Position numbers and translations under genes: made by a program. A model generated the notes under the pieces. That model had not been told where the DNA came from, ran no database searches, and saw nothing but the letters and a program-made list of their open reading frames with translations. From Cyanophora paradoxa CCMP329 (taxonomy: Eukaryota; Plantae; Glaucophyta), in NCBI GenBank assembly GCA_004431415.1, contig QPMI01000553.1, positions 186,001 through 250,000 on the forward strand: DNA of 64,000 nt, written 5' to 3'. Shown one piece after another: positions 23,401 to 47,400 of this stretch (position 1 is the first letter of the stretch; each line of letters starts with the position of its first letter).

Positions 23401-26400
23401 AAGAGGCCCGGCGAGCTGGTCAGCTGCAGGTTCGACGGCGCCATGTCCGCGGGGCTCGCGGGGCCCGCGCCGGAGCCGGCCGGGTACGAGGCGAGCGGCA
23501 CGCTGTTGCTGGCGGGGCCCGCGGGGCTGCCCGACGACGACAGCGGCACCACCGAGAAGTACGAGTTGGCGGCCGCGCTCGGGGTGAGGCCCTTGGGCGC
23601 GAAGGTGTTGACGCCCGACGGCGAGGCCTTGGCGGTCGCGATCTGGCGGCCGTCCTGCAGGACGCCGAAGCTGCCGCGCGAAATCGCGTCAGCGCCCCGC
23701 GGCACAGCGAAAATCGCGTCGCGCGCGAAACACGGCTGCCGCACCTCGGGACGTTGCCCAGGCCGCTCGGCGTGGTCCACGCCAGCAGCGCGCTCGGGCT
23801 GGAGCCGGAGCCCGCCGGCGTCGACGTCAGCGCGATGCCGGAGCTCGGGTCGCTCGGCAGCGACGCCGCGAGCGGAGCCGAGGCGGGGCCCGCGACGCCG
23901 TTGCTGTCGAACGGCACCACCTGCAGGGCCGAGGCGCCGCCGTTGGTCGGCAGGCCCGGGACGGGGACGGAGGTCTGGTTGCCGGCGACCGAGGCCACAG
24001 GCTTGCCGTCCTTGAGGACGGTGAACGAGGCGGGCGAGCCCGAGGCCGGGCGCTTCCACGAGAGGGTGGCGGAGCCGGGGCCGCTGCCGTTGAAGCTGCT
24101 GAGGGCGAGGCTCGACGGGGCGAGGGGCTCGGGGCCGGCGCGTCCACGCCCGAGCCAAGGATGCCCGCGCCGGGCCGGACGAGGGACCGTAGGGGCCAGC
24201 GCCAGCGGTGCCGTAGCCAGGCGCACCCGCGCCACTGTAGGCGGGCGCGGGCCCGAGCCACTGGTCGCGGTGTTCGAGGCCGGGCCGACCGCGCCGTTCG
24301 ACGCGACCGGCGCAACCTGGTAGACGCTGCCGGGCTCGCCGCTCTTGGGCGAGACGTCGAACGAGGTCTCGCTCGCCGGGACGGTGCCGAGGACCTTGCC
24401 GTCGCCGATCACCATGTAGCTCGCGGGGCGTCCACGCGCGGCGGGCTCCACGAGAGGCGGCCCGACGAGCTGAAGAGGCCCGGCGAGCTGGTCAGCTGCA
24501 GGTTCGACGGCGCCATGTCCGCGGGGCTCGCGGGGCCCGCGCCGGAGCCGGCCGGGTACGATGCGAGCGGCACGCTGTTGCTGGCGGGGCCCGCGGGCTG
24601 CCCGACGACGACAGCGGCACCACCGAGAAGTACGAGTTGGCGGCCGCGCTCGGGTGAGGCCCTTGGGCGCGAAGGTGTTGACGCCCGACGGCGAGGCCTT
24701 GGCGGTCGCGATCTGGCGGCCGTCCTGCAGGACGCCAAAGCTGCCGCGCGAAATCGCGTCAGCGCCCCGCGGCACCGCGGAAATCGCGTCAGCGCCCCGC
24801 GGCACCGCGGAAATCGCGTCGCGCGCGAAACACGGCTGCCGCACCTCGGGACGTTGCCCAGGCCGCTCGGCGTGGTCCACGCCAGCAGCGCGCTCGGGCT
24901 GGAGCCGGAGCCCGCCGGCGTCGACGTCAGCGCGATGCCGGAGCTCGGGTCGCTCGGCAGCGACGCCGCGAGCGGAGCCGAGGCGGGGCCCGCGACGCCG
25001 TTGCTGTCGAACGGCACCACCTGCAGGGCCGAGGCGCCGCCGTTGGTCGGCAGGCCCGGGACGGGGACGGAGGTCTGGTTGCCGGCGACCGAGGCCACAG
25101 GCTTGCCGTCCTTGAGGACGGTGAACGAGGCGGGCGAGCCGAGGCCGGGCGCTTCCACGAGAGGGTGGCGGAGCCGGGCCGCTGCCGTTGAAGCTGCTGA
25201 GGGCGAGGCTCGACGGGGCGAGGGGGCTCGGGGCCGGCGCGTCCACGCCCGAGCCAACGATGCCCGCGCCGGGGCCGGACGAGGGACCGTAGGGGCCAGC
25301 GCCAGCGGTGCCGTAGCCAGGCGCACCCGCGCCACTGTAGGCGGGCGCGGGGCCCGAGCCACTGGTCGCGGTGTTCGAGGCCGGGCCGACCGCGCCGTTC
25401 GACGCGACCGGCGCAACCTGGTAGACGCTGCCGGGCTCGCCGCTCTTGGGCGAGACGTCGAACGAGGTCTCGCTCGCCGGGACGGTGCCGAGGACCTTGC
25501 CGTCGCCGATCACCATGTAGCTCGCGGGGCGTCCCACGCGCGGCGGGCTCCACGAGAGGCGGCCCGACGAGCTGAAGAGGCCCGGCGAGCTGGTCAGCTG
25601 CAGGTTCGACGGCGCCATGTCCGCGGGGCTCGCGGGGCCCGCGCCGGAGCCGGCCGGGTACGATGCGAGCGGCACGCTGTTGCTGGCGGGGCCCGCGGGG
25701 CTGCCCGACGACGACAGCGGCACCACCGAGAAGTACGAGTTGGCGGCCGCGCTCGGGGTGAGGCCCTTGGGCGCGAAGGTGTTGACGCCCGACGGCGAGG
25801 CCTTGGCGGTCGCGATCTGGCGGCCGTCCTGCAGGACGCCAAAGCTGCCGCGCGAAATCGCGTCAGCGCCCCGCGGCACCGCGGAAATCGCGTCAGCGCC
25901 CCGCGGCACCGCGGAAATCGCGTCGCGCGCGAAACACGGCTGCCGCACCTCGGGACGTTGCCCAGGCCGCTCGGCGTGGTCCACGCCAGAAGCGCGCTCG
26001 GGCTGGAGCCGGAGCCCGCCACACATATGAATATTCATATTTTAATCCCTCGGCGTTCCGCCTCAGGATTAAAATATGAATATTCATATGTGTGATTCGA
26101 TGTTATATCAATAAAATCGATTAATTTATTTGAATTTTCACCTGAATTTTCATATTTTTACATGCATTTTCAATTAATTTAATCGATGTTATATCGATAA
26201 ACTCGATTAATCGATATTGTATCTTAATTGTAGTTAATCGGAATTATATCAATAACTTCGATTGATCTTAATTGAATCCTAAATGAATCTAATCGGAATT
26301 ATATCAATAAATTCGATTAAATCATGTTCTTTTCCGATTAAATCAATTAAATATTTAACTTTGTTATCATAAGTGGTCTAAGTTGACTCACTTTTCATAA

Positions 26401-29400
26401 ACATTTTGAACTCTTAGTCTCTTTGAATTTCTTAAGATGACTCAACTTAGTCAACTTAGTCAACTTTGTTACCATAATCAATCAGGGTGGACTCACTTTT
26501 AGATCAACTTTGAAATTTCAAGCAAAATCAACTTGGATTTCAAAAGTGGATCTTCTAAGTGGACTCAAAATGTTCACTTTGTGATACATGTTAGCTCAAA
26601 TCCTTACTGTTTATGGTCAGGGTTGACTAAGTGGGGGGAGTTGACACATTTTTGAAATCCTTTTTAGAAAACTTTAGGTCCCAAATATTTCCTGTGAAAT
26701 TTGAGTCAACTCAACCCACTTAGTCAACCCTTGCATTGAATTCGTAACAAAATCCATATACTATTACTACTTTTACGATTAATATGAGTCAACCTTGAGT
26801 CCACTTAAATATAAATATAATATAATAGGGGGAATCAAGGGGAGATGCTGAGTGTTATTGTAAGGAAATCGAATAGTATTCGAAATACTTGACATTGCTT
26901 AATGTAGGGTGCATTCATATTTCGGCTACATCATACAGTAGAATTCTATTGTAACAAAAGCTACTGTAGAAAGAAAATCATTGTAGAAAGCTATTGTAGG
27001 AAAGGATATATTATATCCTTTTTTAACGATTGCCATTGTAATAAAAAGGTAAATTACCCTGTTTATCATTATAGAAACCCATCAAAACGGGAATCTATCA
27101 TGTTTATGTCTCTCAGTCTTCTCAAATGTTAAGAAATTCATTGTTTTATCGATCTCATCTGCAACTGCTTGTGTTTTATGCTGAGCTTCTTTACCACAAC
27201 TGAATATATCAATTGCTAACATGCCTTCATTGGAATAACAATGAGCTGTGCAATGGCTTTCATCTAATAGCAGAACCAATGCAAAACCAGGAGGTGATAG
27301 TTTGCCATCAAATATCTCACAATGCTTATGAACAATCCTAATACCTTGTCTCAATACTGCTTGTTCAAGGGTTCTCATAATCCAATTACCAAGAAAGCTA
27401 ACATGCTCATAACCTGTTGCTATAGCTGTTTTAGCCTTGTAATCAAGCATTACATGAAAGCCTCTGTATTTAGTCTCCATTAAGAATACCTTAGAAAAAT
27501 TAATTAATCCTAATCGAACCTAATGCAAATATCCCTGTACTCTACTTTGATTGATGAAGTAGCCCTTTTCCTGTAAGCCTGAGAATGCTTTTTGTTGCAT
27601 TCCCTACAACCTGATCCCTTCACATGATTAAAGGGATATGTAAGGATCACCTTGTTACACTGCAAACATCTCACAGATACTTTCTCTTGAGCTTTGATGT
27701 AATGTGTCTCACTGTAATCGAATTTATCTTTACCATGAACTGTCATAGCAGCATCAATAAACTTTTTTGTTTTACTATCCATACTCTATATATAACCAAT
27801 ATTCTTATGGAGCAGTATCCTGTCCAAAAATGGGGAAATATCGATTTGTGCCATAATACTCAGCATAGGTATTCTGCCTTGCAATAAAATCGGTTCTCTC
27901 AGCATATAATACACACTTGTAGATACCAAACTTGGTGGCTCTCACCAGAAACTGATAGTCTTCCAAACCGAAATTGACTCCATGATAAGCAATACCAAAA
28001 TTATCATATGGGGTGATCACAACTGCAAAATTAGGAGTTCCACCCTCCACTTGACATACAGCATATACATCTGGTGGAATATCCACAACAACCTTGTAGT
28101 GGTCACCAATCTCAACAAGAGAATCTACTACTGCTGTCTGTTCATTTACTACAATGGGGAATATTTTGATTATATAGGGGGCATTCATGCTGGGGACATA
28201 GGTTCGAATTCTTGTATTGGGATCAATGGGATTGGGTTGATCATTCACAAATAAAGGCGCTCCAACAGCCCCACCAACCCTAAGACCATCACCAATATAA
28301 GCTCCCCCCGATTTGCAGTTAATAGCTCCCGACCTAGATTCAAAAGAATAAGTAGACAGAGGATCTCCATAGCTATCTGGGTCTCCATAATGAGCAGAAA
28401 AGTTTGCATTTGTCACAAGTAGCTTAGTTGTCTTAACTATTCCATTATTTTTATCACATCTGAGTTCCTGTAATCTCAGTTTATGGGTGGAACCAAAGGT
28501 GTTCATTGTAGGTTGGACCTCTGTTGATTGGAGACCCTCTACATCATCAAAGGTAGCATGCTGTAAAACATGGTTTGCTGGGGCAGCTAATGATAGTTGA
28601 GGTGTAATAATTCGTTCAAGTGGGGGTTGCTCAGCCATTTTACATTAAAGGGATATATCTTTTATGGGGTTGGGTCATCAATTACATCTAATTCTTGGTA
28701 AAATCCTGTTGTGAATATATCAGCAACATTTACCCCACGAAGTGCTGATACAGCTGCTATATCTGTTCTCAGTCCCATAATCATAGTATTGTATACTCCA
28801 ACCTCAGTGACAAACAGATCATAGGTAAATGTCAAATTGTTATAAACACAATATCCTCTGCCAAAATGGTTCGAAGCTTGAACAAAGAATAAGTAGTTGT
28901 GTCCTGGTTGATTATTATTGGCTCTACACATGGAAAGCATTGCAGTGGGAAGAGGAATATTTCTTCTTACTCGATCAGTTCCTGTAATGGAAACTAATTC
29001 CGAATTCTCAAGAGTTACAGAGGATGCAACATAGAAATGCAAAAAAGGTTGCTGTGCAACAGGTGTGTAGAAACGAATTCGTTGTGGGTTCTCCACATTT
29101 TGTTCGAGAGTATCTGGGACATCATTGTAGGAAACAGATGAAGATAGCTGACCTGAAACTCTGCAGCCACCACCAATAAATGCTCCTCCTGATCTCACAG
29201 TTACAGCAGCAGTGTTTTTATCATAATCAAGGGCTTTCAGATCAACACTGTAAGCATCAGGACCTCCATTAGTAGGCTGGAAAAAGTTAGCATTTGTGAC
29301 AAGAAGTCGAGTTGTTTTAACCACACCAGAATTCTTATCAGCTCTCAGCTCTTTAACTCGAATAATCGAATTTTTATCAAAGGAGTTGCCATTGGAATTG

Positions 29401-32400
29401 GGTCTCTCTGTGGATTCTAAACCACGAACCTCATCATTTACTTCATGCTGGCGAAAATGCATTGCAGGGGATCCAAGGGAATATATAGGCAGTTGAACTC
29501 GATTATATTCACCCATTGCTTCTTTTACTAAGAAGGAAAGAAAAATAATGTTCATTGTTCTTCTGTGACATAATTATATTCGATACCTTTCTTTACAGTT
29601 CCCCTTTGGAATGCCTGTAAAACGATGGCTTCCTTTGAGGTTGGTATTTGAATTCCTGATGCAATGCAAGACTGGATCTCTTTCTGAACAATATCATCAA
29701 TTGCAATTCTTGCCCTGTTATGAACCACATTATCAATCCAATCCTGAACAGAAGCTGCACAGAATTCCATTCCCAGCTTCTCAGTATCTGAGAGAACTAC
29801 TTGGTAGATATTCGACATTCCTACTTTATAAAGAGAAAATTTATGTGACACTCAAAAGTTCACCTGTGAATGTTGTTCGATTTGTGTAGCTACCCCCATT
29901 ATTTGTTACAAGTGTTATATACTCACCCATAGCAATGTTAAGAATTACACTAATGTAAAGCGGTTTATTCGTAAGAGTTGAGTCATTTTGTGTTATGATA
30001 CTTTGACCCCCTGGGTCTTGGTCATTTACTTTTAAAGAGAGACTTATTGGACTACTTGAAGTTGAATGGGTATATGCTGTAAATCTGTAATGACCTGCAA
30101 CAGGAGCAGTGAACCTTCCATTACTGACATTGAATGCCCCCTATTATTCACAAACACTACTCCCCAATTGATAAGAGCAGTTTCACTGGTAGCAACATGA
30201 GGATAATTAAGTTGAACAGAAAATCGAGGCTGATAGTCATATTTTAAATAACAATTTGTGTTGATTGTCAAGCGATTGGCTTCCAGAGTAGCCATAATAT
30301 CACTGTTGCGTTTCAAAACAAGATTCACATTTGCTCCTGTATCGATTTCAGGTGTGACCACCTTGGAAGTTGCTGTTATTATCGATTGTGTTGTTTCTGG
30401 AATACTTATGCCTCCATTGGCTGTTACTGAACCTGTAAATGTGCTTGTTCCTGTAATGTTTACTTGATTGGCTGTTAGAGTTCCATCAATCCTTGCCCCA
30501 TCTCCAATATATGCCCCTCCACTTCTAACTGAAAGAGCAGCATTATTAATTGTATTATCAAAAGTAACTATTTTGGGTGTGGTGAACCCTCCCACATTGT
30601 CATAAATTGCTGTATCTGAAACAATTTGACCTGATTGGACTTGGTTCTTGTTAGATACAATGAGTCCTGTGGTTCTTATTTTTCCCCATTGCGATCACAT
30701 CGAATTTCTTTGCATCTAATCACAGAATTTTGTGAAAACGAATCAGCCCCTGTTGTTTCTGTGCAAATAAACCCAGGTGTTGCATCTGTTACTGTATGGT
30801 TCAGTTGATGTATTTTTGGGGCGGCATAACAGAAAACAGGAACTGCTATTTGTGTGGACATTCTTTATATTATACAGATAATATTATGTAGCAGTAACAA
30901 GATAACAAGAAAAATAGTATCTGATATCAAATTGAAGACTGGCTCCAGAAGAATTGCGTATATCAAAGGAGTCACCTTCAATAACAGAAAGTAAAATTTC
31001 ATATGAAATTGGAGTTACAAATGTATTAGAAATCCCTGCGGACGGCATTGAAACCCTTGTTTGGATGGTTGTAGGATTTCCATTTAAATAAATGCTGGTA
31101 GCAATATGAGTATAAGAGGTTGTGCCAGCTCTCATACATGCAAAGAACACCCTATATACTCCGGAAACAGGAGCTGTAAATTTTGTGGATGAAAAGTTTC
31201 CTTCATTGTTTACAAGATAAGCTCCATTTATAAAGTTAAAGGGTGTTCCAGCTGTAAGTATTATGGACCCTGTCAAACCAGGAGCTTGTCTTGATATATT
31301 CATTCTTGGACAATAGGATCGTTTCAGACCACTATTTTCCGGGATTGTGATTGCTTTCAGATCTGTTATTGTCTTTTCGAGAGTGAAAATGGTATTTCCG
31401 TTTCGTTTATAATTCACATTTGCATCTGTCCCATTATCCATCTCAGGTGCATTAACTCTTGTTGTAGCTTTTCGAGTTTCAACGCTAACATTTCCCAAGA
31501 GTCCACCATTGAAGGTCATCAATCCTGTAAATGAACTTGTCCCATTCACATTTAATTGATTCGCTGTTACAGTCCCTGCAACATTTGCCCCATCTCCAAT
31601 GTATGCTCCTCCACTCTTGACAACAAGAGCCGAATTATTTATTGTGTTATCGAAAGTTACTATCTTTGCTGTGGTGAATCCACCCACATTATCATACACT
31701 GCTGAATCTGGGACTACTTGACCTGCTTGAACTTGATTTTTATTCGAGATAATAATTCCTGTGGTTCTTATCTTGCCTCCATTTCGATCACATCGAATTT
31801 CTTTGACTCTGAGTATATTATTCTCTGTGAAAGAGGTATTACTTGAAGTTTCAGTGCAAATATACCCAGGTGTTGAATCAACTACTCCATGAGAGGTGCT
31901 ATGAAGTGATTTGGCTGCAAGTTCATAGTTTGGGATTTCTAATAGAGAGGTCATCTTTATAATTACGAAATAGTTAAATTGCGACAGCAATGTAATGAAT
32001 TGTAACTGGAAATCCTGGTCTGTCAAAAGAACTTAATGGAACTATGTCAAGCTCACAAGTGAAATAGCTACTGTAAACTTGTTTAAGCCTAACATACATT
32101 CGATAGTAGTAGGCTGTCTCATTGTGTTGTATACCAGTTGTTACAATAGGAGGGTTAGCAAAGCTGCTGTTGAAATTAATAGTGAGGTTAAACCTATGGT
32201 CAGGATTTGCCCAAAGATAAGGAGTAGTGTAAACATACGTTCCTGCTTGGATTTTCCCATTAAAATATGCATTGAGTTGACTGGAAAGATCTGCCTCTGT
32301 AATACATCGACTGATGGTCGCATTATTTGAGGGGTTCATAGCATAGAAATTTCTTGCATAGGCATTTCCACGAACAAGTAAGGTTTTATCAAAGTAATTC

Positions 32401-35400
32401 TGCGAATTGTGGAAGAACCATGTTTCTTCAAACATAGGTCCTGCTGGTTCTACAATCTGACCTGATCCTACATACATTGTGTTGTTGGCTCTGATTGTGG
32501 TGGCTGTGAAAGGATCAAGAGTTGGTCTATTGGTCAAATCATTGTAGTTTCCTGAGAAAATTGCAGGTTTGTTATAGATATCTGTATTCCAATCATGAGT
32601 GTGTGCAAAATCTGTAATCTCTGCCTTTGTGTGGGTGTGACCAACATATGCAACATTTCCAAGATCTGTAATCTCTGCCTTGGTATGGGTGTGACCCACA
32701 TATGCAACATTTCCGAGATCTAATATCTCTGATTTAACATGAGTGTGAGCGAAATTTGTGATATCTGCTCTTGTGTGGAAGTGTGCAAAATCTGTAATTT
32801 GTGATTTGGTGTGAGTGTGTGCAAAATCTGTGATTTCTGCCTTTGTGTGGGTGTGTGATCTATTATTTAGATCAAGGAAACTACCCGAAAATGCAACAGG
32901 ATGCAGATTTGCAGCAGTAGGTTTATTTATGAGATCATTATAATCTCCTGTGAAAGAGATGGTCTTTAGTTCACCCCTTCCTACATAATCAGAAGGGAGA
33001 TCAATCTTAATGGGCATAATAGCTGGATCATCAGGTATCTCATACTCACCTCCTGGATGAACCACAGGAAAGGTTTGATTGCTTTCAGTATGGACAAAGA
33101 AGTTACATGCTGTTACTGTTCCATCAATAGTCCCACCTGTGAGAGGGAGGTAATTGCCTGTAACACCAATACCTATACCTGCAATGATTGTATTTAGTTC
33201 TGTTTCATCTATGTAGTTCTGAGCTTGAAGGTAATCCTCTGTGACTACTCTCGAAATGCTCTCATTGTGTATGTTTTTTGCAGCCATTCTTTGATTGGCT
33301 TCCAGAACCCCACCATAATCTGTTTTAATCCATGCAAGCTCTGCCCTTCCATAATTATCATTTGCAGTTCCCACTATGGGAATGTAGGAATACTTATCTC
33401 GACTGAAAACTATCATTGGTCTTGAGCCATCTAAGCTGCTTACATCTGCTACATGAACCTGTATAGCAGAGTTGTAATTTTGGTAGGTTGCTGGGTCTGT
33501 TGGGACTCTGAATGTATCTGTGGGAATGTCAGCCTCCATGTAGCTTGACACAAAGATATTTGGTATGGTTGCTCCTGGTGGTGGTGGGGTTTCAAAAGAG
33601 CCTGGTAATGTCCTAATATGAAGTGGTCCTCTCATAGCTGAATTTGCAAGTGTCCCATTCACATGAACATAGTGTTCATTCAAAAAGATCCTTTCAGGGA
33701 TATTACAAGTCTGGTAAAGAGAAACCCCCAAGTTATCAAGAGGCTCCACCTTTGCAAATTCTGGTTGGTCATTGATCTCATCCCAAATATGTTCATGTTT
33801 GCTTGGTGGGAACTCAGTTGGAATCCCATCAATTTCACCCCAATCATGCCTGTGATCCTCTGGTGGATACTTTTGAGGTTTGCCTAAGATCTCATCCCAA
33901 TCATGATTGTGATCCTCTGGGGGATACTTTGCAGGTTTATTATTAATTTGTTCATAATCAGGAAAGAACTCCCAGATCTCAGGTCGAAATCCATCTGGTA
34001 ATAATTCCTCATGGGGTTCATAAGGTTGCTCATAATCAACAACTGGTGGATCATGCCCATCTGGCAAATACTCCTCATCAGGTTCATAGTTCTGCTCATA
34101 CTCAAACTCTTGTGGATCTAAGCCATCTGGTAGTATCTCCTCCTCATTGGGATCAAACTGATCATATTCATATTCTTGTGGGTCAAAACCATCTGGTAAA
34201 TATTCTTCCTCATCTGGAACGAATTGATATTCATCAAGCTCTAATATATCGATTTCAGGAGGTAAATACTGCTCATCTATTTGCTTTTTTGGTTCAATTA
34301 TAGGTTTATTGCGAACTTGCTCCCAACTAACAATGTGCTGCCCAAAGGCTACATCTTCAGTTGCTGTGTATTCTCTTCCAGGCTGTTTCTTTGGTGTTAA
34401 ATCGGGAGGTCCATTTGGAAATGGAATAGGGAATGGGACTGTTGGTCCATTGGGACCATAATGCTCAATTATTTCCCTTAGAGTTTTCTCACTCACAAGT
34501 TTCTCCCCATTTGCATACACATTGCTGCCATGGATATTTCGCCATTGCCTGGTTCTAATTCCAAGGTCTTTCACATTGCTATACAAAGGCAAAAGGTGCC
34601 TATCCATTTCGACTAAATCAGGGTGTAAATGGATTGCTACTGGTTGACTGGGGCTACTGTTGATTGTAATTGATGGCTTTTTTTGATGGACATCTTTTGG
34701 AGTAAAAAACCCAAAAGGCTCATTCCTCGCAAAGTCATATGTAATATCCTTGGGGTAGACATCATTTGTGTAGGAGACCTGATTTGTGTTGGCAATGGGA
34801 CCCACTTGCAATACTTGGGGGACCTCAGCTTTTGGAGTGCTGCCCTCATTGTAAATTCGCAAAGCTGTGTTCTGTTTGCCCTGCTCATCTTGAACATTGA
34901 AAATCAATCGACCACTATCGAACCTGGAAGGTATATCTGGGTGAGTGCCACTGGTTTTTAGTTTCCTAGGTCTCCTTCTTGTTGCTTTGATCTCTGCCAC
35001 TTGGTTTGCTTTCACATTACCCAAACTAAAAGCAACACTGACCTCCTCTTTATCTGGATCGGTTTGATTCACAGATAAAGCATGCTCCCTTGATTGAGTC
35101 TTTGATGAATTATCAGAGCTGTGGTCAATTGAAACTGAACCCTTTACTTTAATATTATCAAAGTTCACATGCTTGGTGCTGCTTGCATTATCATCTTGAA
35201 TGGTTTCTAGATTTGGTGGGTAATTGAAGCTCATGGCTTTTACTATATGGATTTATAAAATTCCTGATAAGTAAAAGATGCCTCTCAAGGTCGCTTTAGC
35301 TTTATCAGGGGGAGGTGCAAGGGGCATTATCATAACCAGGCTGCTCAAAGAAATCGAAAATCGAACTGGCAGGAGAATAATCGATCTTGTGGATCTTGTG

Positions 35401-38400
35401 AGTGGAACTTCCACTGGTGGGATCATTGCTATTGGGTTAAACATCAGGCATCCTGATAAACCAGGTGAACCTAAACTCACAGCAAACGATTTACACAATA
35501 TTTACCTAACTCAACTGCCCTTGATTTTCGCAAATCCTCGAAATATCATCGAAAATGCCCTATTTAACACAAAGTATGATGTGGGACCCTTGGAGACTGC
35601 AATCAATTCAGTTACTGGTGAATCACTAATACAGGATTCCCTAAAGGACATTGTGATCACATCCTTTGATACTCAGAATATGAAACCAATATTTATCACA
35701 AATGATAACAATTACAACTTTATGCCTTGTAAGATTGCTGCTAGGGCTACTTCTGCTGCTCCTACATACTTTTCACCTGTAAGCATTGTTGATTTCAATC
35801 GGGGAGTATATGTCTGTCTCATTGATGGTGCCATTTCGGGTAACAATAATCCCAGTGTGTGTGGTTACAGCCATGCAAAGAAGATTTACAGTGATGATGA
35901 TGATATTATAGTAATAAGTATCTCTTGTGGAGAGGTGGACCCACATTTAGAGTCTGACTATGTGGGTTATGCTTATGAGACTGTGAACAGCTGGGGCATT
36001 CTCTCATGGATTGCCTCAACAGATGGAAGCCCATTGATTAACATGCTCATGGCTGCAAGTGAGCTTTCTGCCCTTGATAAGATGGAGGAGTTGTTACCCT
36101 ACAACTATGATCAGGATTATGGGAGATACTATAGGCTATCAGTCCCTCTTCCAAACCATATAGTAAGCTCCCTTGATGACACTTCTAAAATCCCAGATAT
36201 GCTTTCTTTCACAGAAACATACATAGCAGCAAACAATGATATGATCAATAAGCTTTGCAGCCTTTTAGTAGCAAACTATGAACTAAAGAACCCTACAAAG
36301 GCTTACATCTCATCCACTCTCACTACATCACCTCCTTTGGATGCTAATTGGTATCAGCTTGCAGATGATGCCTTCACTGCCTCATCCTCTGTGACTGGTA
36401 AAGAGCCTTTCATGGCTAGACCTTCAGCATTTGGCTGGGAAGCTGGAGCCTATGCTCCTGAACAGATATGGGAAACCCCCACTGAATACCTACAAGTTGC
36501 TTTTCCATATACTTTTGAACTCTCTTCTGTGATTGCCTATGGATCAGGGGACACCAATGCTTTTATTAAGACTTTCAATGTGGCAACATCCACTGATGGG
36601 ATCAACTGGTCTTTTATTCGATCAGATGGGCAGAACAAAATATATGTCTGTGAGAACATCAACAATGCTCACAACTCTGGTGATGTGGCTTTATTGAGTG
36701 GATTCCCTCTCAGCATCAAGGATGCTTTTTACATAGGTTTTTCTCTCAGAATTAAATATATTCGCATTTATCCCCTTGTGTATGTGAATGCTCCCACAAT
36801 GAGAGTTGATTTCACAGGTGCCTTTATTCGATAAACTCCAACTGAAAAGAATTATCGATTCCATTCATATCAATCAGTTCACCAAAGTAATCTTTAAATT
36901 CAACTGTGAGTTCCCTTATCACCAGGTTTCTGTCATTTATCTGAATGAATTCTGCATGCTCACCACTATGGTAAACATAGCCACCTATATCCTTACTCAA
37001 TTGTAATCTAAGGATAGCCCCCTGGTTATGTGGTTGCGATTTCGGAATTATATTGTGTCTGCTGGCAAAGGGGGCTAGCTCTTTAATATGCATGTACAGA
37101 TACTGCTCAGCATTCATATCAGACATCTTCCTGCTGTCAAAATAATACTGCAAGGGCTTTGAGGAGAGTCTGGGTCCTGAGAAGGTGATTCCCCATGCTG
37201 GGTGATCAGGTGTAATAGGTTTACCATCATACTTTAAAAGGTTCTCAGGTCGATATGGAGATCCACCAACAGGAGGAGTGCTATAATACCCAGTGGTGTA
37301 TTCAGTAGAACTCACACCCAAAAGCTTCCCTATTCGCTTGTTGCTTGCAATAAAACGAAACTCATGATTACTGTAAAACTCCACTTTATAGGTTGTTGGG
37401 TTGTAGAATATCTTGAACTCAAAAGCTACTGTTTTGCCTGCAATGGTTTGGAAGCTTGAATAGTTCAGCCCATAATTATAAGGGTGTGTTACCCCAAAAT
37501 GACCCTGATTGATGTAGCCACTGGGAAGGGGATACACTTGTTGTGTGATCACTTGGTTATATGAACCATCTTGGTAATTAAACTGAACTGTTAGATGATC
37601 AGTTCCCACACTGTTATAGATACTGTTTGGAATCTCTGCATATAGAACCCTGCATTCTCTTGGTCTCTCTACTGGAGTTGTGAGGGTGACCCTGTAAGAG
37701 TTTTCATTTTGTCCTTGGCTTCTATCCCTGCTATCAATATTAACGAGCCGGTTCATTTTAATATATAAATATAGATAAAAGAAGAATGCCTGTGGATTAC
37801 ATCGAGGTTAGCTCATTTAATACAATCTCTGGTGATGGTCCCACATCAAGCTTTGTGGCTCGACTTCCCAGTACTTATGAGAATGTGAGGGCTGTGAGAC
37901 TGGTCTCAGCCGAATTTTATAACAGCATCCCTATGGTGAGTGGTGAAACCAAAGCAGGAGATGTAACAGTTGATAACACATTTAGTATTTATTATTCTGA
38001 ACAAACTCCTGGAGCTGGAAGCTCAGGAATTCCAACAACTCGTCCAGCTGCTGATTTTGAACAATGGAAACAGTTCATGGTAAATCGCGAGACCCCCATC
38101 CAAAGCCACCAACAGCTGGTGAATGTAATCAACTCAAAATTCATTGGCAGAACTCCCCAACCATCCATTCGCTGCAAATGGGATGAATCACTGAAACGAA
38201 TTATATTCCACTCAGCAGTGCCTTTTTACCTGGCTTTTTCACTTGCTGTAAACCCAAGCCAACAAACAATCCAAAAGCTATTGAGTTCAGCTAGACTGCT
38301 TGGTCTTGATCCTGGAAGATATGGGAATTCCCCAATCAAATCCCAAGTTTATGATGCTCTCACTGATGGAATCTTTACTGATGGTCGAGTGAATGGCATT

Positions 38401-41400
38401 ATATCTTCTTTTGAGCCTGAGAAGACCAGGGACAGTGTTTTGTTTGTGAGAGTAAAGGAGCTGGGTGATCTGGTTCAATGTGGGGATGGTCTTCTGACTG
38501 GTTACTTCCATAAAATAGTGGTTCCTGACAAAGATTATGGTGAGCATGTTGTTTACAATTCAACAGAGGCTCATCCACTTTATAAATACTATAACAAAAA
38601 GGTTGGATTATCCACTTTCTCGGTTGATATTGTTAATGCTGTAAATGAACCAATTGATTTTGAGGGTCAACCTGTTCATCTGACCTTTGAAATTCGCTAT
38701 GGTGATGAGCCAGCTGGGGACCCAGTTTATGAATACTTTAAAATGAGAATGTCTCAGCTTCACCCTTCCTATCCAGTTATTACAAGCTTCGCATAAATTA
38801 AGGATCATTGGTAGATTTTTTATGTTGCAGTATAATAAAAGAGAATATCATGGATATCACTTCCACTCTTCAAAGACTTTCGCTGAAAGAAGCCCTAACA
38901 ACCCAGAGGAGGCGAAAGCCTTTTTCCTGGATAACTCCCTTATGCTTGGTCTCGAATCCAAGTCTAAGCCAGTTCTAGTTGTTGTGAATCCCAGCAATAC
39001 TTTTGAGAATAATGTTGGAAATCGCATTTCCTTCAAGCTACCTCGCTACAATTTCTGTGGAAAACTCGAACTTGCTTTCGACCTTCCAGCCATCACTTTT
39101 GGTGGTGAAGATCTTGTTCGAAATGGATACACTCGCCCTGTTGGTGCTTTAGTTCAGCGACTTGAAATTACCTATGGATCTTACACCTACCATATTCCAT
39201 CTGATTTCCTTGCTCATTTCCCCCTGGTCTATTATTCGGAGGATCAACTAGCTAAAAAGAAACGCTCAATGGGCATGGTTCATGGTATCCCTGCTCATGG
39301 AACCAACCGACTTGGTGGCTCATTCTTTGTTGAAATCCCAGTGCCTTGGCTCAATCACTACCTTCCCCTTGGTGCTTTATCTGGTGAAATGGTTGTTACT
39401 GTTTGGTTTAAGGATGCTGATAAGGGTTATGTTGAGACTTCCTATGGTGGTCGCTCTCTTCCTGTTGTTGGTGGGACAGCTGCTGATAAGACAGAAGATG
39501 ATGGTCTTGGTGATACTGCTAATGCTACACTTGCCCATGTTGGTCAAAATATCACAACTTTCAGCCTTGGTGCAACAACCCCTGGTATTACAATTACCTC
39601 TCCTCGCCTTTACATGCATGCTGTTAATGTTTCTGATGAGCTTTTCGCTACTGTAATTGAAAAGGTTAAGACTACTGGCATGGCTATTCCTGCTCTAGAC
39701 ATTGGGTTTGTTGATGCTAGTGCTTTCCCTGCCAAGGGCAATGCCCAACCCAATCGAATTAACCTCTCTCAAATATCAGGTCTTGTATATGCTCTGCTTG
39801 TTTCAGTTCGTGATAATGCAACTGTTGACAAAGCCAATGGCTCCCACAGTGTTCTTAAGACCTATGCCAACTCCAAAGAGATAACATTCACAACTGAAAT
39901 AAATGGACAGCGACTTTTTGCCACTGAGCCAATTTCCCTACTCAAAGGTGCTGAGCTAATTGCTGATGCCTTCAAATGCTCTAACATGGATAAGGTTGCT
40001 GATCGCTATGTCCTTTCAGGATTGCCTTTCTGCCTTGATGGAGAAAAGGCGATTCGAAATATTGCCCAGTCTGGTTATGTTGATTTAACAAATTCCTCCT
40101 CTTCATTCCTCACCCTCTACATGCCTTCAGATAAGGTAATCGATGTTAATGTTCGCGCTCTCATGCATAGCTTTATTATTGTCGACAAAGACGGATTAAG
40201 GCGTATCAATCTTTAGAGTCTACAGTGAAGATTGTATGTATTCATTGGAGTTTTCTGCAAAAAATGATTTCGTTTTATCTTCTTCTCATCATTTAAAGAG
40301 AAGTCATATTTAGAATATAAAAGCAATATGCTGCCTCTTACAACTTCAGATTTCATTGAGCGAAGCAAGGGTAAGTATGGAGACAAATTTGGGTATGAGA
40401 AAACAGAATACAAAAATGCAAAAACAGTTCTAACAGTTACCTGTAACACTTGCCAAAAAGATTTCACATCTTATCCTCACCACCATCTAAAGGGTAATGG
40501 AGGTTGTAAGAGTTGCAAAAGTGATCTCTACCATAACCTATTTGTAAAGCCAGTCGAGAAGTTCATAGAAGAAGCTCAAGTAATTCATGGTGACAAGTAC
40601 GATTATTCACAGGTAAAGCAAAATTACAAAAATGCGAAAGTGAAGGTAGCAATTACATGTAAGGGTTGTGGAAATGTGTTTCAGCAAGAGCCATATTCAC
40701 ATCTTAGAGGTCGAGGTTGTCGAAAATGTGGTCATCAGGAAAAGGGTGCAAAGCTGAGGAGCAATACTTTGGAATTCATCTCAAAAGCAAAGAGCATCCA
40801 TGGAGACAAGTATGATTATAGTCAAGTTGAATATAAAAACAAGTTTAGCATTGTCAAATTGAAATGCAACATTTGCTTGAATGAATTCCAACAGGAAGCA
40901 AGAGTACATTTAATGGGAAGTGGCTGCATTGCTTGCAAAGCTTCTAAAGGAGAGAATGCAATTGCTTCCATCCTCAATAATATTGGCTTAGAGTACGAAA
41001 GAGAGTATTCCTTCAAGGACTGCAAGGCTCTAAGAGTTCTCCCTTTCGATTTCTATATGCCTGCATTGAAAATAGCTATTGAATATGATGGAAAACAACA
41101 CTTTGAACCTGTTGAATACTTTGGAGGGGAACAGGATTTTGAGAAACGAAAACTAAAAGATGCTATTAAAACTAGATACTGTGAAGCCAACAACATATTA
41201 CTCCTAAGAATCCCATACACCGAAACCGATATTGAGGGCTGCATTAAACAATTCCTATCTAATCTGTAAAACCATAATCAGTAACATTTCATTATTTTTA
41301 TCTGTCTTTATTTAGAAAGATATACAACAATGAATGATTTGGATGAATTTGTGGCTGGTGAAATGATAGAACCACCGTTTAGAGTCCTAGCAATTGGTAA

Positions 41401-44400
41401 ATCAGCAACTGGTAAATCAGAAGCTGTAAAGTATTGGCTAAAGCAGTTGCATGATGCCAAAAAGATTGATGTTGTATTAGTTGTGAGTGGGACCAGCTTC
41501 AATCATTTCTGGGATAAAGTGGCAACACTGCAACTGGGAAAATGGGATGCCCCTTACATTGCTAAATTGCTAGATGAGAGGCAAGAGAAAATAGAAAAGG
41601 GTGAACCTGTTAACCAGTTATGCGTAGTTTTAGATGATTTAATCGATAATGAGATAGTCGATCTCACAAGGGATAAAATAATCGGATCATTGTATTCCAG
41701 AGGTCGCCATTCGAAAATATCCATTATCTGCATCACACAAAAGCTAAGGAAAGTCTCTTCGACTATTCGAGTTAATTCGGACTATGCTATGTTTCTCAGT
41801 GCTGCAAATCGCAAAGAACTAGAAGCCATAGAGGAAGAATACAATATAATGCGAAATAAAGAGGATTTTTACAAGATGTTTGAAGAGTATGTTCACTCCT
41901 ATCAGTATATCATTTGGTCCTCTGCAAACTACTCAGTTAAATACTATGTAGATAAAGCTGAGCTTGTGAAAGATTTCCCATTTCCTCGCTTCCACAGGAA
42001 GCCAAAAAAGAAAGAGGATGAACTGAAACCACCAGAAAAAGAGGAAGCCCCCAAAGAAGTGAAAAGCCAAGTCCATAGCAATAAATTGATGCGATATAAA
42101 CGCGGTTTATAAAATTATCTCTCATTCTAATAAAGATACAATGCCTCCCAAACGAAAGATAGGGATCCCAGCTGGGGCTGTTGGCTATTCAGGTGGTGGA
42201 AACAATGGATCCATTAACACTGAACCACTGAAGTTCAATGGTATGAATGAGGTGAAGCCCTCACAACAAGAAGAAGACCCTCTTAATGCTGCCTATGAGG
42301 AATCAGTCGATGACAAAGCCCCACAGGCTTCAACCAGTGACCAACTCAACATCTCACCAGAAGCCTCAAAAATGAAAGCTGTTGCTGAGGGTGCCAGGCG
42401 AATTATTGGGGCTGCTGATGATAAAGGTTTAGGCTTGCAAGATCTTTCACTGGCTCGCAAAGGTGAAGGTCTTAGTAAGGAATCAGACAAGGTTATTCAG
42501 TCTATGGCTGGTGAAGTCACATATAAGACTGCTCCCACTCAAAATATTCATCGAATTCCCAAGGCTCAATGGGATGAGATGACTGCTAAACTCAAAGATC
42601 TGGAAGCCAAATCAAGTGCCTTGGAGCAGTATGTTACTGAGAAGAAAGAGAGAGCCAAGCTAAAGGAGATGCTTCGAAAGGAAGTTTATAAAATGGGCAT
42701 TACTGGTGTCCCAGATAAACAGTTTATTGCCAAGAAGGAGAACCAAATCGATGAGCAAGCAGTAGATGAAATGAAAACAAAGACCCAAAAGGGAACCATT
42801 GAGCCTGGTGCCACCAAAGCTGAAGTAGAAAAGGGAGTAGCCCCAACAGTATATAAAAGACGAGTTTGGCTTTAATTTTCTCTGTTTTATTAGAGACATG
42901 GATATAATACGAAAGTTTATTGAGATGCTCAGTCTGCATGTGGTCAGCAATTGCCACAGTGGATGCTGTGACACAACAATAGAGTTTGAGATGTCAGATA
43001 ATGAGGATAATGCCTCAGAAGCAAGAGAGAGAAGAAGATCAACAGTGTCTGTGGAGTCAATGCCAGCAGACCCCACAGAGTATACATATGAGCAACAGGA
43101 GTATCCAAGGAGAAGTTCTCTGCCAGCAGAAAACGTTTTCTCAGCAAATATTAATGGAGGATACAATTAGTTTGATCGAGTTTACTAGTGATGAGCCTTT
43201 AACTGAGGGTGCTATTAGACACATTCTAGCAAAGCAGAAACGATATAGAGAGGACCCAGCATATAGAGAGTATAAGAAACAACAAGCCCTGGCATCCTAT
43301 TATCGCAGAAAAGCCCAAAAAGAGGAGCAGAGACCCAGAGGGAGACCGATTAAATATTATTTGCCTACTGATAGTAGCAATGGACCCACAGGTCTATAAG
43401 ATACTTGAGAAAAAGCGGTCTCAGTATGCTACTGAGGCAGCTATTAAAGTTTACAGACAGGAACTGGTGTTCGCAACAAAAAATGACTTAAAGAAAAAGT
43501 AGATAGGTTGTATTGAGGAAAAATTATTTTCGTATCTACTATTAAAGAGAAATGCCGAATATCCGCAAGATACTCACAGATGATGAAAAAGCAGAGAAGC
43601 TGAGACTGAAAAGGGAGCAAGATGCCCAAAGAAAACGCGAAGCCTATCATAAAAAGAAGGAGGAACGATTATCCCAAGGAGCCGCTACAGTTCACACACC
43701 AGAAGAACTCAAAAAGATTGCCCTCAGACACCAGAGGAAATACAGGGAAAATGAAGAATATCGCGAACAGAAAAAGGCGAAAGCGCTGGAATACTACCAC
43801 AAGAAAAAGACGAACTACCCAAGACACCCAAAGAGCATAAACCGGTTGGAAGACCTCGGAAATATATCGAAGAATAAATTCTCGATCGAAACAAATTTTG
43901 TAGAAATCGATTTGATCGGAGGCAAAAAAATGACAGCTTTCTTCCCTCTTTTTTAAAACTGTACCTATATATCGAGACAGTATCCCGACCCAAAACTACT
44001 TAAGGACTTGGCAAATAATAGGATATATATAAAAGACAATTCCTCCTTCCGAAATTATTTTCTTCGTTAAAGGTAGAAGTCCCCCAAAATCGAAAATGAA
44101 CAAAATCGAGAAATTCGCCACCCCTGTTGAAAATGCTACATTCCTTAGTACTCTCATTGGTGATCGCAACAAGGTCACCCATGTATTTGATTCTGCTGAA
44201 GATGCCCTTGAAGCCATTGATAATAGCAAGGTTAAGACCTGGGCTGAATGCATTCAGCCTGAACAAGTCACCAGAGTTTACCTGGACCTGGATAAATTCG
44301 CTGATTTGAAGGAGAACATTGCTGAAAACTATGCTGAGGCTGAAACTGTTGTAAGAGAGATGAGAGATAAGCTATGGAAGCGATCTGGGACCACTTCGAT

Positions 44401-47400
44401 TAACGATATTGCTGTTGCAGTTCGCCATAGAAGGGTTTATTTGATTAAGGAGGATGTCACCAAGTTCAAGATTTCAGCCCACTTTATTATTAAATCGCTT
44501 GCATGCAAACATGAAGATATCCCCAAGCTTTTCAAAGCGATGGGATTGGTGAAAAATGAGGATTATGACAGTGGAGTTTACAGCTCCACACAGAACCTAA
44601 TCTGCCTCAATTGCTGCAAAGGTGAGACTCTGGATGCTCAAAATAAGTCGAAAAAAGATGTTGATAAAAACGTTTGCTTTAAGAAATTCGTTGACTGTGA
44701 CAAAGTGTTAATGCGAAATGAGGACTTCTTTGTATCTTACTTCTCAGCTACTACTAAACTTGTGGATGAATCAAATATTTCTGCATTTGACGGGAGGATT
44801 TGCATTAGCACACAACAACAACTACTAGGAGTTTCACATCGCCCAATTTATCTCTCCGACTAGATAACATTGAGGACCGTCGAGTGCTGTGCTCTGTCTA
44901 AGTGGTGGGAAATTCTATCTACGTCCTATATCTACAAATGGGGCGAGAGGCCGAAAGATACACCTGCAGAAAAAGCCCAGCGCCCTACGCAGACCGATGA
45001 AGGCAAACAGAGCGCGCAAACACCCTCCAGACGTGGAAGTCCGCCCTAGGGAAGACCCACGTATAGCGGAGGGCAGGAGAGGCACTACGCCTGACAAGCA
45101 AAAGTCGACGGAAAGACCTGAGCTTCCCTGCATGTGGAAAAGAACCGCCATCTAGCGACTCGACTGCGAGGGGATGAGGAGCGGAACGAAATGAGAGAGC
45201 GCCGATGAGCCCCAGCTGCCAAGCAAGGGAGCGGGGGCCGGGCGCCGTCCGCGTGTTGACGGAACACGTCGCCGCACCAGTGTGCCACACCACGGCTACC
45301 GCGCGTTCACTAACGCTGCGGCGCATGGCGGCGTGGGCTTTGCGCGAAAGCTGGCCGACATTGCGGCCAGCCGACGTCGCCGCGACCGCTCCCGCGGCAC
45401 TCCTCGCCGAGCCGGAGACATCATAGAAGCTAACCCCTGACGCGCGCGCTCCTGAATCTCCTGCGGAATGGCCGGCGACAAGGCCGGCTGCCGAGGCGCC
45501 AACTCGACGCCCATTTCGCGCCGCCGCTCGGCGCGCCAGCCGCCTACCTCACGCTGGTCACGCTGAGCGACAGCGGCGGCGCCATGGACGGGCCGCAGCC
45601 AGCCGCGCGCCGACGCGGTGGGAAATTTTCTCGTACCCGTCTCTCTCAATATTTCTGCATTTGCAAATTATACTCCTGAGCCAAAACCAGTTAAAAAGGA
45701 GCCAAAAAGTGCTAAAGTGAAGACTGAGAAGGTAGAAGCTGAAAAAGACACTGAACCCGAAAATCCTGTTACTTTCGAACTGCTACAAAGTGTTATAATG
45801 GGTCTGAATGGTGAGAGAGCTAATGAGTATAAAACTTGGATTGATGTAGGACTGGTCATCATCAATGTTGGGGAAGACAACAAATTTACCCCTAAAATGC
45901 AGGCTGAACTCTTCCACCAATTCTCAGAACAGAGTGACAAGTATGATTATGATGAATGCCAGGAGAAGTTTACACAGCTTCGCAGAAGCAAGAAGAAGGC
46001 TGAGCCTGGCAAAGTGTTGACCTTCAAATCCTTGGTTTATTGGTTGAGCAAAGATAACAATGAGCTTTTCAAGGAACTCTTCCCCAAAAAGTATGCATTC
46101 CTACCAGAGGACACAGATGAAATCGATTACAAGACTGCAAGTATCCCTCCTTTGGCTGAACATTACAATGTGCATAAGAGGTATTTCAATGCTCGAATGC
46201 ATCATGTTGAAAATGTTGGTTGTGTGATGCTCTGGGATGAACAACTACTTTGCTGGATGCCCAAAGATATTGGGAAGCTCTCTACAAAGCATTTCCCCCA
46301 TTTGATGCATAAGGTGATTGTCAATGAGGGAACAGATAATGAGAAAGAGAAATGGGAGCAATCATTTAGGAAATGGATTGTGGATCCAACAGCCACAAGA
46401 TCAACTTACATGGATTTCCTTCCCCCTCCTGCTACTCTCAGTGCAAAATGCAAGTCTGTATTTAATCTCTATCCAGGAATGAAGGTCGACCATCAGCAAT
46501 TCGAAAATGCTCCAGAGGATGTAACTGCTGAGATGATTAAGCCTTTCCTTGATCACTTGTTCTTAATGTCTGGTGAGGATCAAAATACCTATGAATATCT
46601 GTTGAAATGGTTTGCCCACATGCTGCAAAAGCCTGGGGAACTCAATGGAGTATCCTTAATCTTCATTGGTGAACAGGGAACTGGTAAGAATGTGTTGGTT
46701 GATACTTTCCAAAAGAAGATACTTGGAGATGCCCTGAGTTATGCAACTGGTAAGCCAAAAGAGGATCTGTTTGGTCGATTTGCCCATAACAGAGAGGATA
46801 AGATCCTGATTGTTGTCAATGAAGCCTCAGGCAAGGACACATTCGAAAATAATGATATGCTCAAAGATCTCATAACTTCTGATAAGATTGTAATTGAACA
46901 CAAAGGGATAGATTCATACACAAAAAGCAACTTTGCCAGGATTATATTCACCAGCAATAACAACATTCCAGTAAAAATTGAAGCTGGAGATAGGCGATTT
47001 GTGGTTGTTGAAGTTAGTAAGAAATTCGCAAAGGATAGGTCATACTTCCTTCCACTTGTAAAATGGCTAAATGATCACTGCAATATTCGAAACATTGCCC
47101 ACTATTTGAGAACCAAAGTTGACTGTGAGGATGTGAACTGGATTGCTGATAGACCCCTTACAAATAAATACTATTTAGCCCAGCAGGTATGCGCCCCAAT
47201 CATTCTTATGTTCACTAAGTGGCTTGTGGATCGAGGCTTAATTTCCGAGAATAAATGCAAGTCTGGTAGCCTTGTGGAAACCTGGAAATGGTTCCAGGAG
47301 TTTATTACCAGCAACAAATATAAAAACGATTATAATAGTCGCAGATATTATACAGAAATGCGAAGTGTTACATATATCCAAGTGAAAACTACAAATGGCA

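Follow-up and report, generated by a model that had tools for sequence, protein, structure and literature searches.

Strand-asymmetric terminal palindromes of a polinton-like virus integrated in Cyanophora paradoxa and a possible role in 3'-hairpin self-priming

The window (the whole stretch of 64,000 nucleotides of Cyanophora paradoxa DNA that was analyzed) contains an integrated polinton-like virus (PLV) whose two ends are formed by palindromes of 73 nt. Whether these palindromes serve 3'-hairpin self-priming with asymmetric resolution is, in our judgment, an evenly balanced question, and every other reading is given less weight here. The self-priming or rolling-hairpin replication put forward in the original prediction is sustained in part: a stable apex on the 3' strand only and the loss of both the priming motif and the proofreading site of the viral polymerase speak for it, while its symmetric version fares poorly, since inverted junctions are few.

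Results

Integration site and gene content

The 6-bp target-site duplication (TSD) directly abuts both palindromes, and the empty insertion site is present in 13 other host repeat units; the ends of the element are therefore fixed at the palindrome tips (Table 1). Element and TIR lengths are within the polinton/PLV range (14-40 kb, with TIRs of several hundred bp). The virus was inserted within one unit of a host tandem array (18600-26020 and 54576-64000), which consists of near-identical units of ~1.07-1.22 kb with long open frames.

Table 1. Features of the integrated element and its flanks (positions in the window)
Feature	Position	Strand	Remarks
Left target-site duplication	26015..26020	+	CCCGCC, 6 bp
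Whole integrated polinton-like virus	26021..54575	.	28,555 bp, 39.5% GC, within ~75% GC host tandem repeats
Left TIR	26021..26850	+	830 bp, 30% GC
Left terminal palindrome	26021..26093	-	Minus is the 3'-terminal strand and carries the G-A-type apex; sequence, folding, pairing check
Nested 16-bp perfect palindrome, outer arm	26025..26040	n/a	Also 26074-26089, 54507-54522, 54556-54571
Asymmetric apex	26049..26065	-	3' strand: T.G, G.A, A.G, 4-bp GC stem, GAA loop
Second, subterminal inverted repeat	26619..26731	.	35-nt arms, 86%; counterpart 53864-53977; internal relative 47575-47756
Double jelly-roll capsid protein	38822..40216	+	Predicted model (pLDDT 60) matches PBCV-1 capsid proteins, E 7e-16
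Zinc-finger homing-type endonuclease, candidate nickase	40328..41269	+	Profile match
A32-type packaging ATPase	41330..42112	+	Pox_A32 E 5.6e-11
Primase-helicase region	44096..47564	+	N-terminal AEP-like motifs by eye, then PriCT-2 and SF3-type helicase
Insertion splitting the primase-helicase frame	44790..45663	.	874 bp, one copy of a 16-bp duplication included; 62% GC
GIY-YIG endonuclease, candidate nickase	47808..48158	+	Profile match
pPolB, 1081 aa	48219..51464	+	Terminal-protein domain, shortened priming loop V183-D-S-Y186; vOTU C231/H337, EndoVII insert, motifs A-C kept; exonuclease dead
rve integrase	51468..52853	+	Pfam PF00665 E 2.5e-4, under curated cut-off; homologs carry PF00665; 6-bp TSD
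Right TIR	53746..54575	-	99.6% identity to left TIR
Right terminal palindrome	54503..54575	+	Plus is the 3'-terminal strand; "flip" orientation as on left
Right target-site duplication	54576..54581	+	CCCGCC, 6 bp

Fibers are also encoded. The ORF at 36824-37756 has a weak DUF5901 match (E 0.011), and that at 37786-38796 matched no profile. No maturation cysteine protease was matched among 21 ORFs (Pfam) or 8 ORFs (NCBIfam), searches that a distant one could escape, and no HUH Rep/NS1 nickase was found among 21 ORFs (Pfam). For the putative AEP segment (44096-44788), profile searches gave no match, bar one weak unrelated one. The closest relative of the capsid protein is a Cyanophora paradoxa protein (59%), and the accessible text of PMC12220804 mentions a PLV of Cyanophora whose fiber has the same PTR plus H-lectin make-up; the family of the element has therefore likely been catalogued already.

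Several features of the element are recorded here in their own right. The primase-helicase halves on either side of the insertion are in the same frame, and there is no second copy in the window. Adjoining the left TIR is an S-adenosylmethionine decarboxylase gene (27082-27480; Pfam E 1e-11), an unusual cargo for a small virus. The protein encoded at 35278-36834 joins a patatin phospholipase to an F5/8 carbohydrate-binding domain; its best NCBIfam match is a CBASS lipase family, under the cut-off of that family.

Sequence and fold of the terminal palindromes

The left palindrome has perfect 28-bp arms flanking a 17-nt center, which is made up of a 3x3 mismatch bubble, a GGCG/CGCC stem, and a TTC loop. 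Its folding energy is -29.5/-30.6 kcal/mol (z scores of -14/-13), a stability that 0 of 200 shuffles equaled, and within the interior of the element no other perfect stem of at least 11 bp with a loop of 3-40 nt was found. The palindrome nested in each arm, which was recreated in 167 of 200,000 arm shuffles, is a candidate site for a dimeric protein. Sequence, folding, and shuffling thus bear out the hairpins with nested palindromes that had been described at both virus ends. The inverted copy at the right end was likewise confirmed as an exact reverse complement; both copies sit in one 829/830-bp TIR with 3 differences, so the right-hand palindrome was rejected as independent support. A T- or Y-shaped fold arising from the nested palindromes was also rejected, the T-shaped alternative reaching -13.4 versus -30.6 kcal/mol.

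The tips of the element read (AC)2A..T(GT)2, a short-repeat end motif as in Polintons/Mavericks that resembles the 5'-(AC)3A//T(GT)3-3' tips reported for eel Mavericks in the accessible text of PMC8097293. The view that ACAC...GTGT termini are atypical was not upheld, and they were dropped as an unusual end type, this being an already known Maverick end.

Just inside the hairpin, 26097-26320 holds short, iteron-like AT-rich repeats in both orientations (39-bp and 34-bp copies). Upstream of the GIY-YIG and polymerase genes sits the internal relative of the subterminal inverted repeat. Contig depth summed over 26681-26840 reaches roughly tenfold the level of the remaining TIR, so this motif is likely common to further elements, perhaps as a promoter or origin.

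The two strands of the palindrome differ at the apex. On the 5' strand the bubble pairs as C.A, T.C, and C.T, followed by the TTC loop, and the tandem 5'-GA/GA-3' in a pyrimidine-GA-purine setting together with a GNA loop is found on the 3'-terminal strand only. Tandem sheared G-A pairs in pyrimidine-GA-purine steps are a known stable DNA fold (PMC10085684, in the text accessible), and GNA triloops are a known stable DNA motif (PMC3201870, likewise). Judged from its sequence, the apex would fit tandem sheared G-A pairs and a GAA triloop solely on the 3'-terminal strand. When apex sequences were enumerated, tandem GA plus a GNA loop arose on either strand in 192 of 110,592 and on the named strand in 96. 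The weak points of the apex are a GAA loop with the weaker G:C closing pair (PMC3201870, same portion) and a T.G wobble as one flank of the tandem GA, and the computed stability gap between the strands is ~1 kcal/mol, against a stem of 30 kcal/mol.

A polymerase with a degenerate priming loop

The pPolB of the element was compared with the best 120 of 2,878 matches (only the 7,995 best candidates were scored). The priming-loop column holds Ser or Thr in 117 of these 120 listed homologs (Ser 108, Thr 9) and Asp184 in the element. The G-S/T-G-W loop of the listed homologs has become V-D-S-Y, without Gly or Pro, and, set against 112 of the 120, the loop that joins helix 162-181 to strand 186-200 is short by 4 residues. 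The accessible text of PMC11161782/bioRxiv 10.1101/2024.03.18.585575 places the linking Ser/Tyr, with Gly/Pro nearby, in the loop where the second helix of the N-terminal domain is joined to its last strand. We infer that the conserved loop Ser is the linking residue in the polymerase family of the element.

The exonuclease has been lost as well: the ExoI Asp, present in all 120 listed homologs, is Lys (D422K), ExoII is gone, and ~94 residues are deleted. Polymerase motifs A-C are intact in a frame unbroken over 1081 codons, and the losses are therefore not recent decay. Upstream of this exonuclease-dead pPolB lie PriCT-2 and the SF3-type helicase; the pairing of exonuclease loss with helicase gain is a pattern described in the accessible part of bioRxiv 10.1101/2024.03.18.585575. 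The predicted pPolB fold resembles the phi29 polymerase and PolBs of the adintovirus or bidnavirus type. No close PolB relative was found among the 7,995 best candidates scored, in which proteins of 594-1892 aa reached at best 36-40% identity; a separate comparison with shorter proteins gave 24-26%.

The EndoVII-like domain of the polymerase had been named as a possible cutter of the terminal cruciforms. All 120 listed homologs retain its H-x-H and C-N residues, and 117 of them also have the priming Ser/Thr, so the domain is not a special partner of the hairpin; the proposed link is non-specific, and the domain was set aside as ordinary in this polymerase family.

Rather than hairpin priming, it is possible, if somewhat unlikely, that the terminal-protein domain or the primase-helicase still starts replication and that the palindrome is a cap, an integrase/excision site, or a packaging signal; there would then be no hairpin transfer, and orientation would be kept. 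The dominance of a single loop orientation (see below) agrees with this, as does the (AC)2A tip of known Maverick type. Since Ser185, Tyr186, and the vOTU active-site residues persist, the pPolB may, to judge by its residues, still be capable of protein priming. Either Ser185 or Tyr186, neighbors of the lost Ser, might serve as the linking residue, which would count against hairpin priming. The terminal-protein fold, still predicted in an alignment-driven model, these two residues, the vOTU catalytic Cys and His, and a tip of the jumping-back type all fit retained protein priming. For a packaging role, an A32 ATPase is encoded, and mismatched hairpins of larger viruses have been tied to packaging (accessible text of PMC12085832); for excision, the outer-left arm and the inner-right arm form a pair of 28-bp direct repeats that could serve. 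Continued protein priming leaves unexplained why a motif present in 117 of the 120 listed relatives is lost and why the stable apex is on the 3' strand, though a role as a 3' cap would account for the apex.

Loop orientation in public contigs

Five of 24 public runs were compared, as assembled contigs representing integrated copies only. About ten other host flanks of the palindrome appear as loose ends (among the 20 of 24 loose ends and 32 of 194 pieces listed). The two orientations were distinguished with 31-letter words, which differ only where a word spans a loop base, the whole arm, and an outside base. In run X3, both flip inner-junction words had a depth of 50, and the loop contig had a depth of 51.3. 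Simulated ratios of flip word to loop were 1.0 for flip only, 0.90/0.85 for 15% flop, and 0.66/0.52 for 50% flop; the ratio was ~1.0 or more in X4 and X9 and 0.70-0.95 in X1, depending on the baseline chosen. One loop orientation thus accounts for about 70-100% of integrated ends, with the ratios to be read as rough, the depths being contig means summed over many copies and open to library bias and the runs possibly representing one strain.

An inverted-type junction, a word that a flip-only population could not contain, was found in X3 on a 454-nt contig that covers 26064-26093 and enters other DNA at a depth of 3.3; its flank recurs in X1 and is absent in X9. Depth residuals in X3 suggest a second inverted-type word (26065-26094, depth 5). 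Such junctions may stem from true flop ends, from solo palindromes, or from loops that were inverted later. The comparison of copies for flip/flop inversion that had been proposed, run here on public contigs, therefore yields inverted-type junctions that exist but form a minority. Separately, one genomic copy (26027-26056) ends at the apex after 26056 and continues into unrelated DNA in X3, X4, and X9 of 4 runs, representing either an end opened at its tip or a loop with an insertion. When scaled to host repeats, the depth of the TIR showed an ~8-fold spread among runs; this was rejected as a sign of free virus, as library bias could produce it.

Neither the viral nor the metagenome contigs contained an exact match to the arm or apex (0 in each), and scans of viral contigs for related loci, based on the integrase or capsid, revealed no relative. 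One distantly related metagenome locus (L001, 5527-10726) has a 35% integrase and the same order of polB, GIY-YIG, and rve; it has an E-G-S-G motif and an intact exonuclease. The 335 nt beyond its integrase lack a palindrome, but the contig stop is probably not the virus end.

We see a slim chance that the palindrome is a by-product, left when the genome end once folded back and since copied together with the TIR, and that the inverted junctions reflect later host-side loop inversion or arm-to-arm recombination. In favor of such an origin, loops flanked by short inverted arms are known to invert, and viral and metagenome contigs provided no relative with the same end that would show conservation. 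The authors of the Halocafeteria study themselves name accidental annealing as an alternative (bioRxiv 10.64898/2026.07.28.741278, accessible text). Two points weigh against a by-product: the apex pattern is rare by chance, as enumerated above, and the same source reports terminal palindromes in five Halocafeteria subtypes.

Similarly improbable is a symmetric mechanism of the AAV or poxvirus type, in which closed hairpin ends would undergo hairpin transfer or EndoVII cruciform cleavage to give equal flip and flop. The AT-rich imperfect hairpin, the retained EndoVII residues, the occurrence of inverted-type junctions, and the copy broken at the apex would suit it. However, in 3 of 4 runs the flip words were about as deep as the loop, and in the fourth they reached 0.70-0.95 of its depth, when 0.58 was expected. 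If X3 has 13 ends, at most 2 inverted ones have a P of 0.011 at 50:50; if it has 10 ends, P is 0.055. Symmetric resolution is disfavored because inverted-type junctions are a minority, and it would be viable only with an integrase that chooses one isomer.

Palindromes are prone to mis-assembly and no single contig spans the whole end, yet the chance of an assembly artifact is negligible, this reading being refuted by the clean TSD, the 13 empty sites, and the public contigs, which contain the palindrome in five runs, cover it piecewise by mismatch-free overlaps in 4 of 4 (X1, X3, X4, and X9), and bridge the left junction of the window itself as far as 26046 in both X1 and X9.

Discussion

Proposed mechanism

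In the mechanism that we propose, the simplest one to unite these observations, each 3' end of the free virus would fold into a G-A-capped hairpin, which would prime strand-displacement copying in place of the terminal protein and would be expected to yield head-to-head junctions. A nuclease (the EndoVII domain or the GIY-YIG or zinc-finger candidate) would cut both strands at the inner border of the arms, leaving one overhang with a weak apex and one with a strong apex. The former would be filled in, giving the extended "flip" end that the integrase inserts, and the latter would snap back and enter another round of copying, as at the left end of MVM. Rare inverted junctions would result when the wrong overhang is occasionally filled in or when arms recombine. 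Simple hairpin transfer gives 50:50 isomers, so this model requires an additional, assumed asymmetry. Everything in it beyond the anatomy of the integration site is what we infer.

A more far-reaching proposal, which we hold to be unlikely, is that protein priming was swapped for a strand-specific G-A-capped hairpin telomere that the EndoVII domain of the polymerase resolves asymmetrically, so that one isomer integrates, and that the palindromes permit exit as a circle or a hairpin-ended molecule, leaving solo palindromes behind. If true, exit through the palindromes would explain how such proviruses excise.

Comparison with known systems

The closest parallels are endogenous virophages of Halocafeteria seosinensis (subtypes 1, 2, 5, and 6) and a PLV (subtype 4), in which palindromes adjoin the TSD and hairpin priming was proposed (bioRxiv 10.64898/2026.07.28.741278, as far as the text is accessible). 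Like these elements, the Cyanophora virus has a palindrome in the TIR beside the TSD and an rve integrase. The Halocafeteria palindromes occur mostly with non-pPolB replicases, according to the same portion, a point in favor of hairpin priming; the element described here has a pPolB with a degenerate priming loop and exonuclease. The words "flip," "orientation," and "mismatch" are absent from the main text of that preprint.

With Polintons/Mavericks, as they are described in the accessible text of PMC8097293 and bioRxiv 10.1101/2024.03.18.585575, the element shares a pPolB with a terminal protein, vOTU, and an EndoVII-type insert, as well as the rve integrase, a 6-bp TSD, long TIRs, an AC-repeat tip, a double jelly-roll capsid, and the ATPase. 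It departs from those descriptions in its 73-nt terminal palindrome, its primase-helicase, and the lack of the priming motif and proofreading, and no maturation protease was found in it by the searches above.

Parvoviruses are single-stranded DNA viruses with a nickase, NS1, of the HUH family. The two ends of the Cyanophora element are identical, it integrates by rve, and no HUH nickase was found in it, unlike in parvoviruses. Like the MVM and LuIII left-end telomere, its end is an imperfect 3' hairpin with a small bubble whose orientation is kept. In the accessible text of PMC1185569, the MVM left-end junction is resolved asymmetrically into extended and turnaround forms, and the left end of the LuIII minus strand is reported as flip only.

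Flip and flop isomers of AAV and poxvirus telomeres occur in equal ratio. Unlike these telomeres, the isomers of the element are far from equal (in integrated copies), and a T-shaped fold is strongly disfavored. Shared with AAV ITRs and with poxvirus, asfarvirus, and chlorovirus telomeres (PMC11788076, accessible text) are an AT-rich, incompletely paired hairpin and the existence of inverted isomers.

Isomer bias in PLVs is not reported in the accessible portions of PMC12721341, 10.64898/2026.10.13.758929, 10.1101/2025.10.09.676808, PMC11788076, or PMC12085832, and a term search of 10.64898/2026.06.19.733378 gave no matches. A literature search turned up no paper that deals with biased isomers, an apex confined to one strand, or a lost priming loop in PLVs; its scope left out most subscription journals, and bioRxiv supplements could contain such data.

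Implications

Terminal palindromes and hairpin priming have already been proposed for Halocafeteria virophages and PLVs, and the general idea is not new. What is added here is an apex confined to the 3' strand, the loss of the priming loop and proofreading beside a primase-helicase, and a biased loop orientation. The element joins a decayed priming loop, a 3'-strand hairpin, and a measurable isomer bias, and it does so in an alga that can be cultured and has many near-identical copies; this bears on how polintons and PLVs copy their ends and exit host chromosomes. A sequence rule also follows, under which PLVs that have lost the priming motif should carry terminal palindromes, and thousands of PLVs can be screened with it. 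Many giant viruses have hairpin telomeres, and hairpin priming, if true, would show how protein-primed ends could give way to hairpin-primed ones in a group thought to be related to them.
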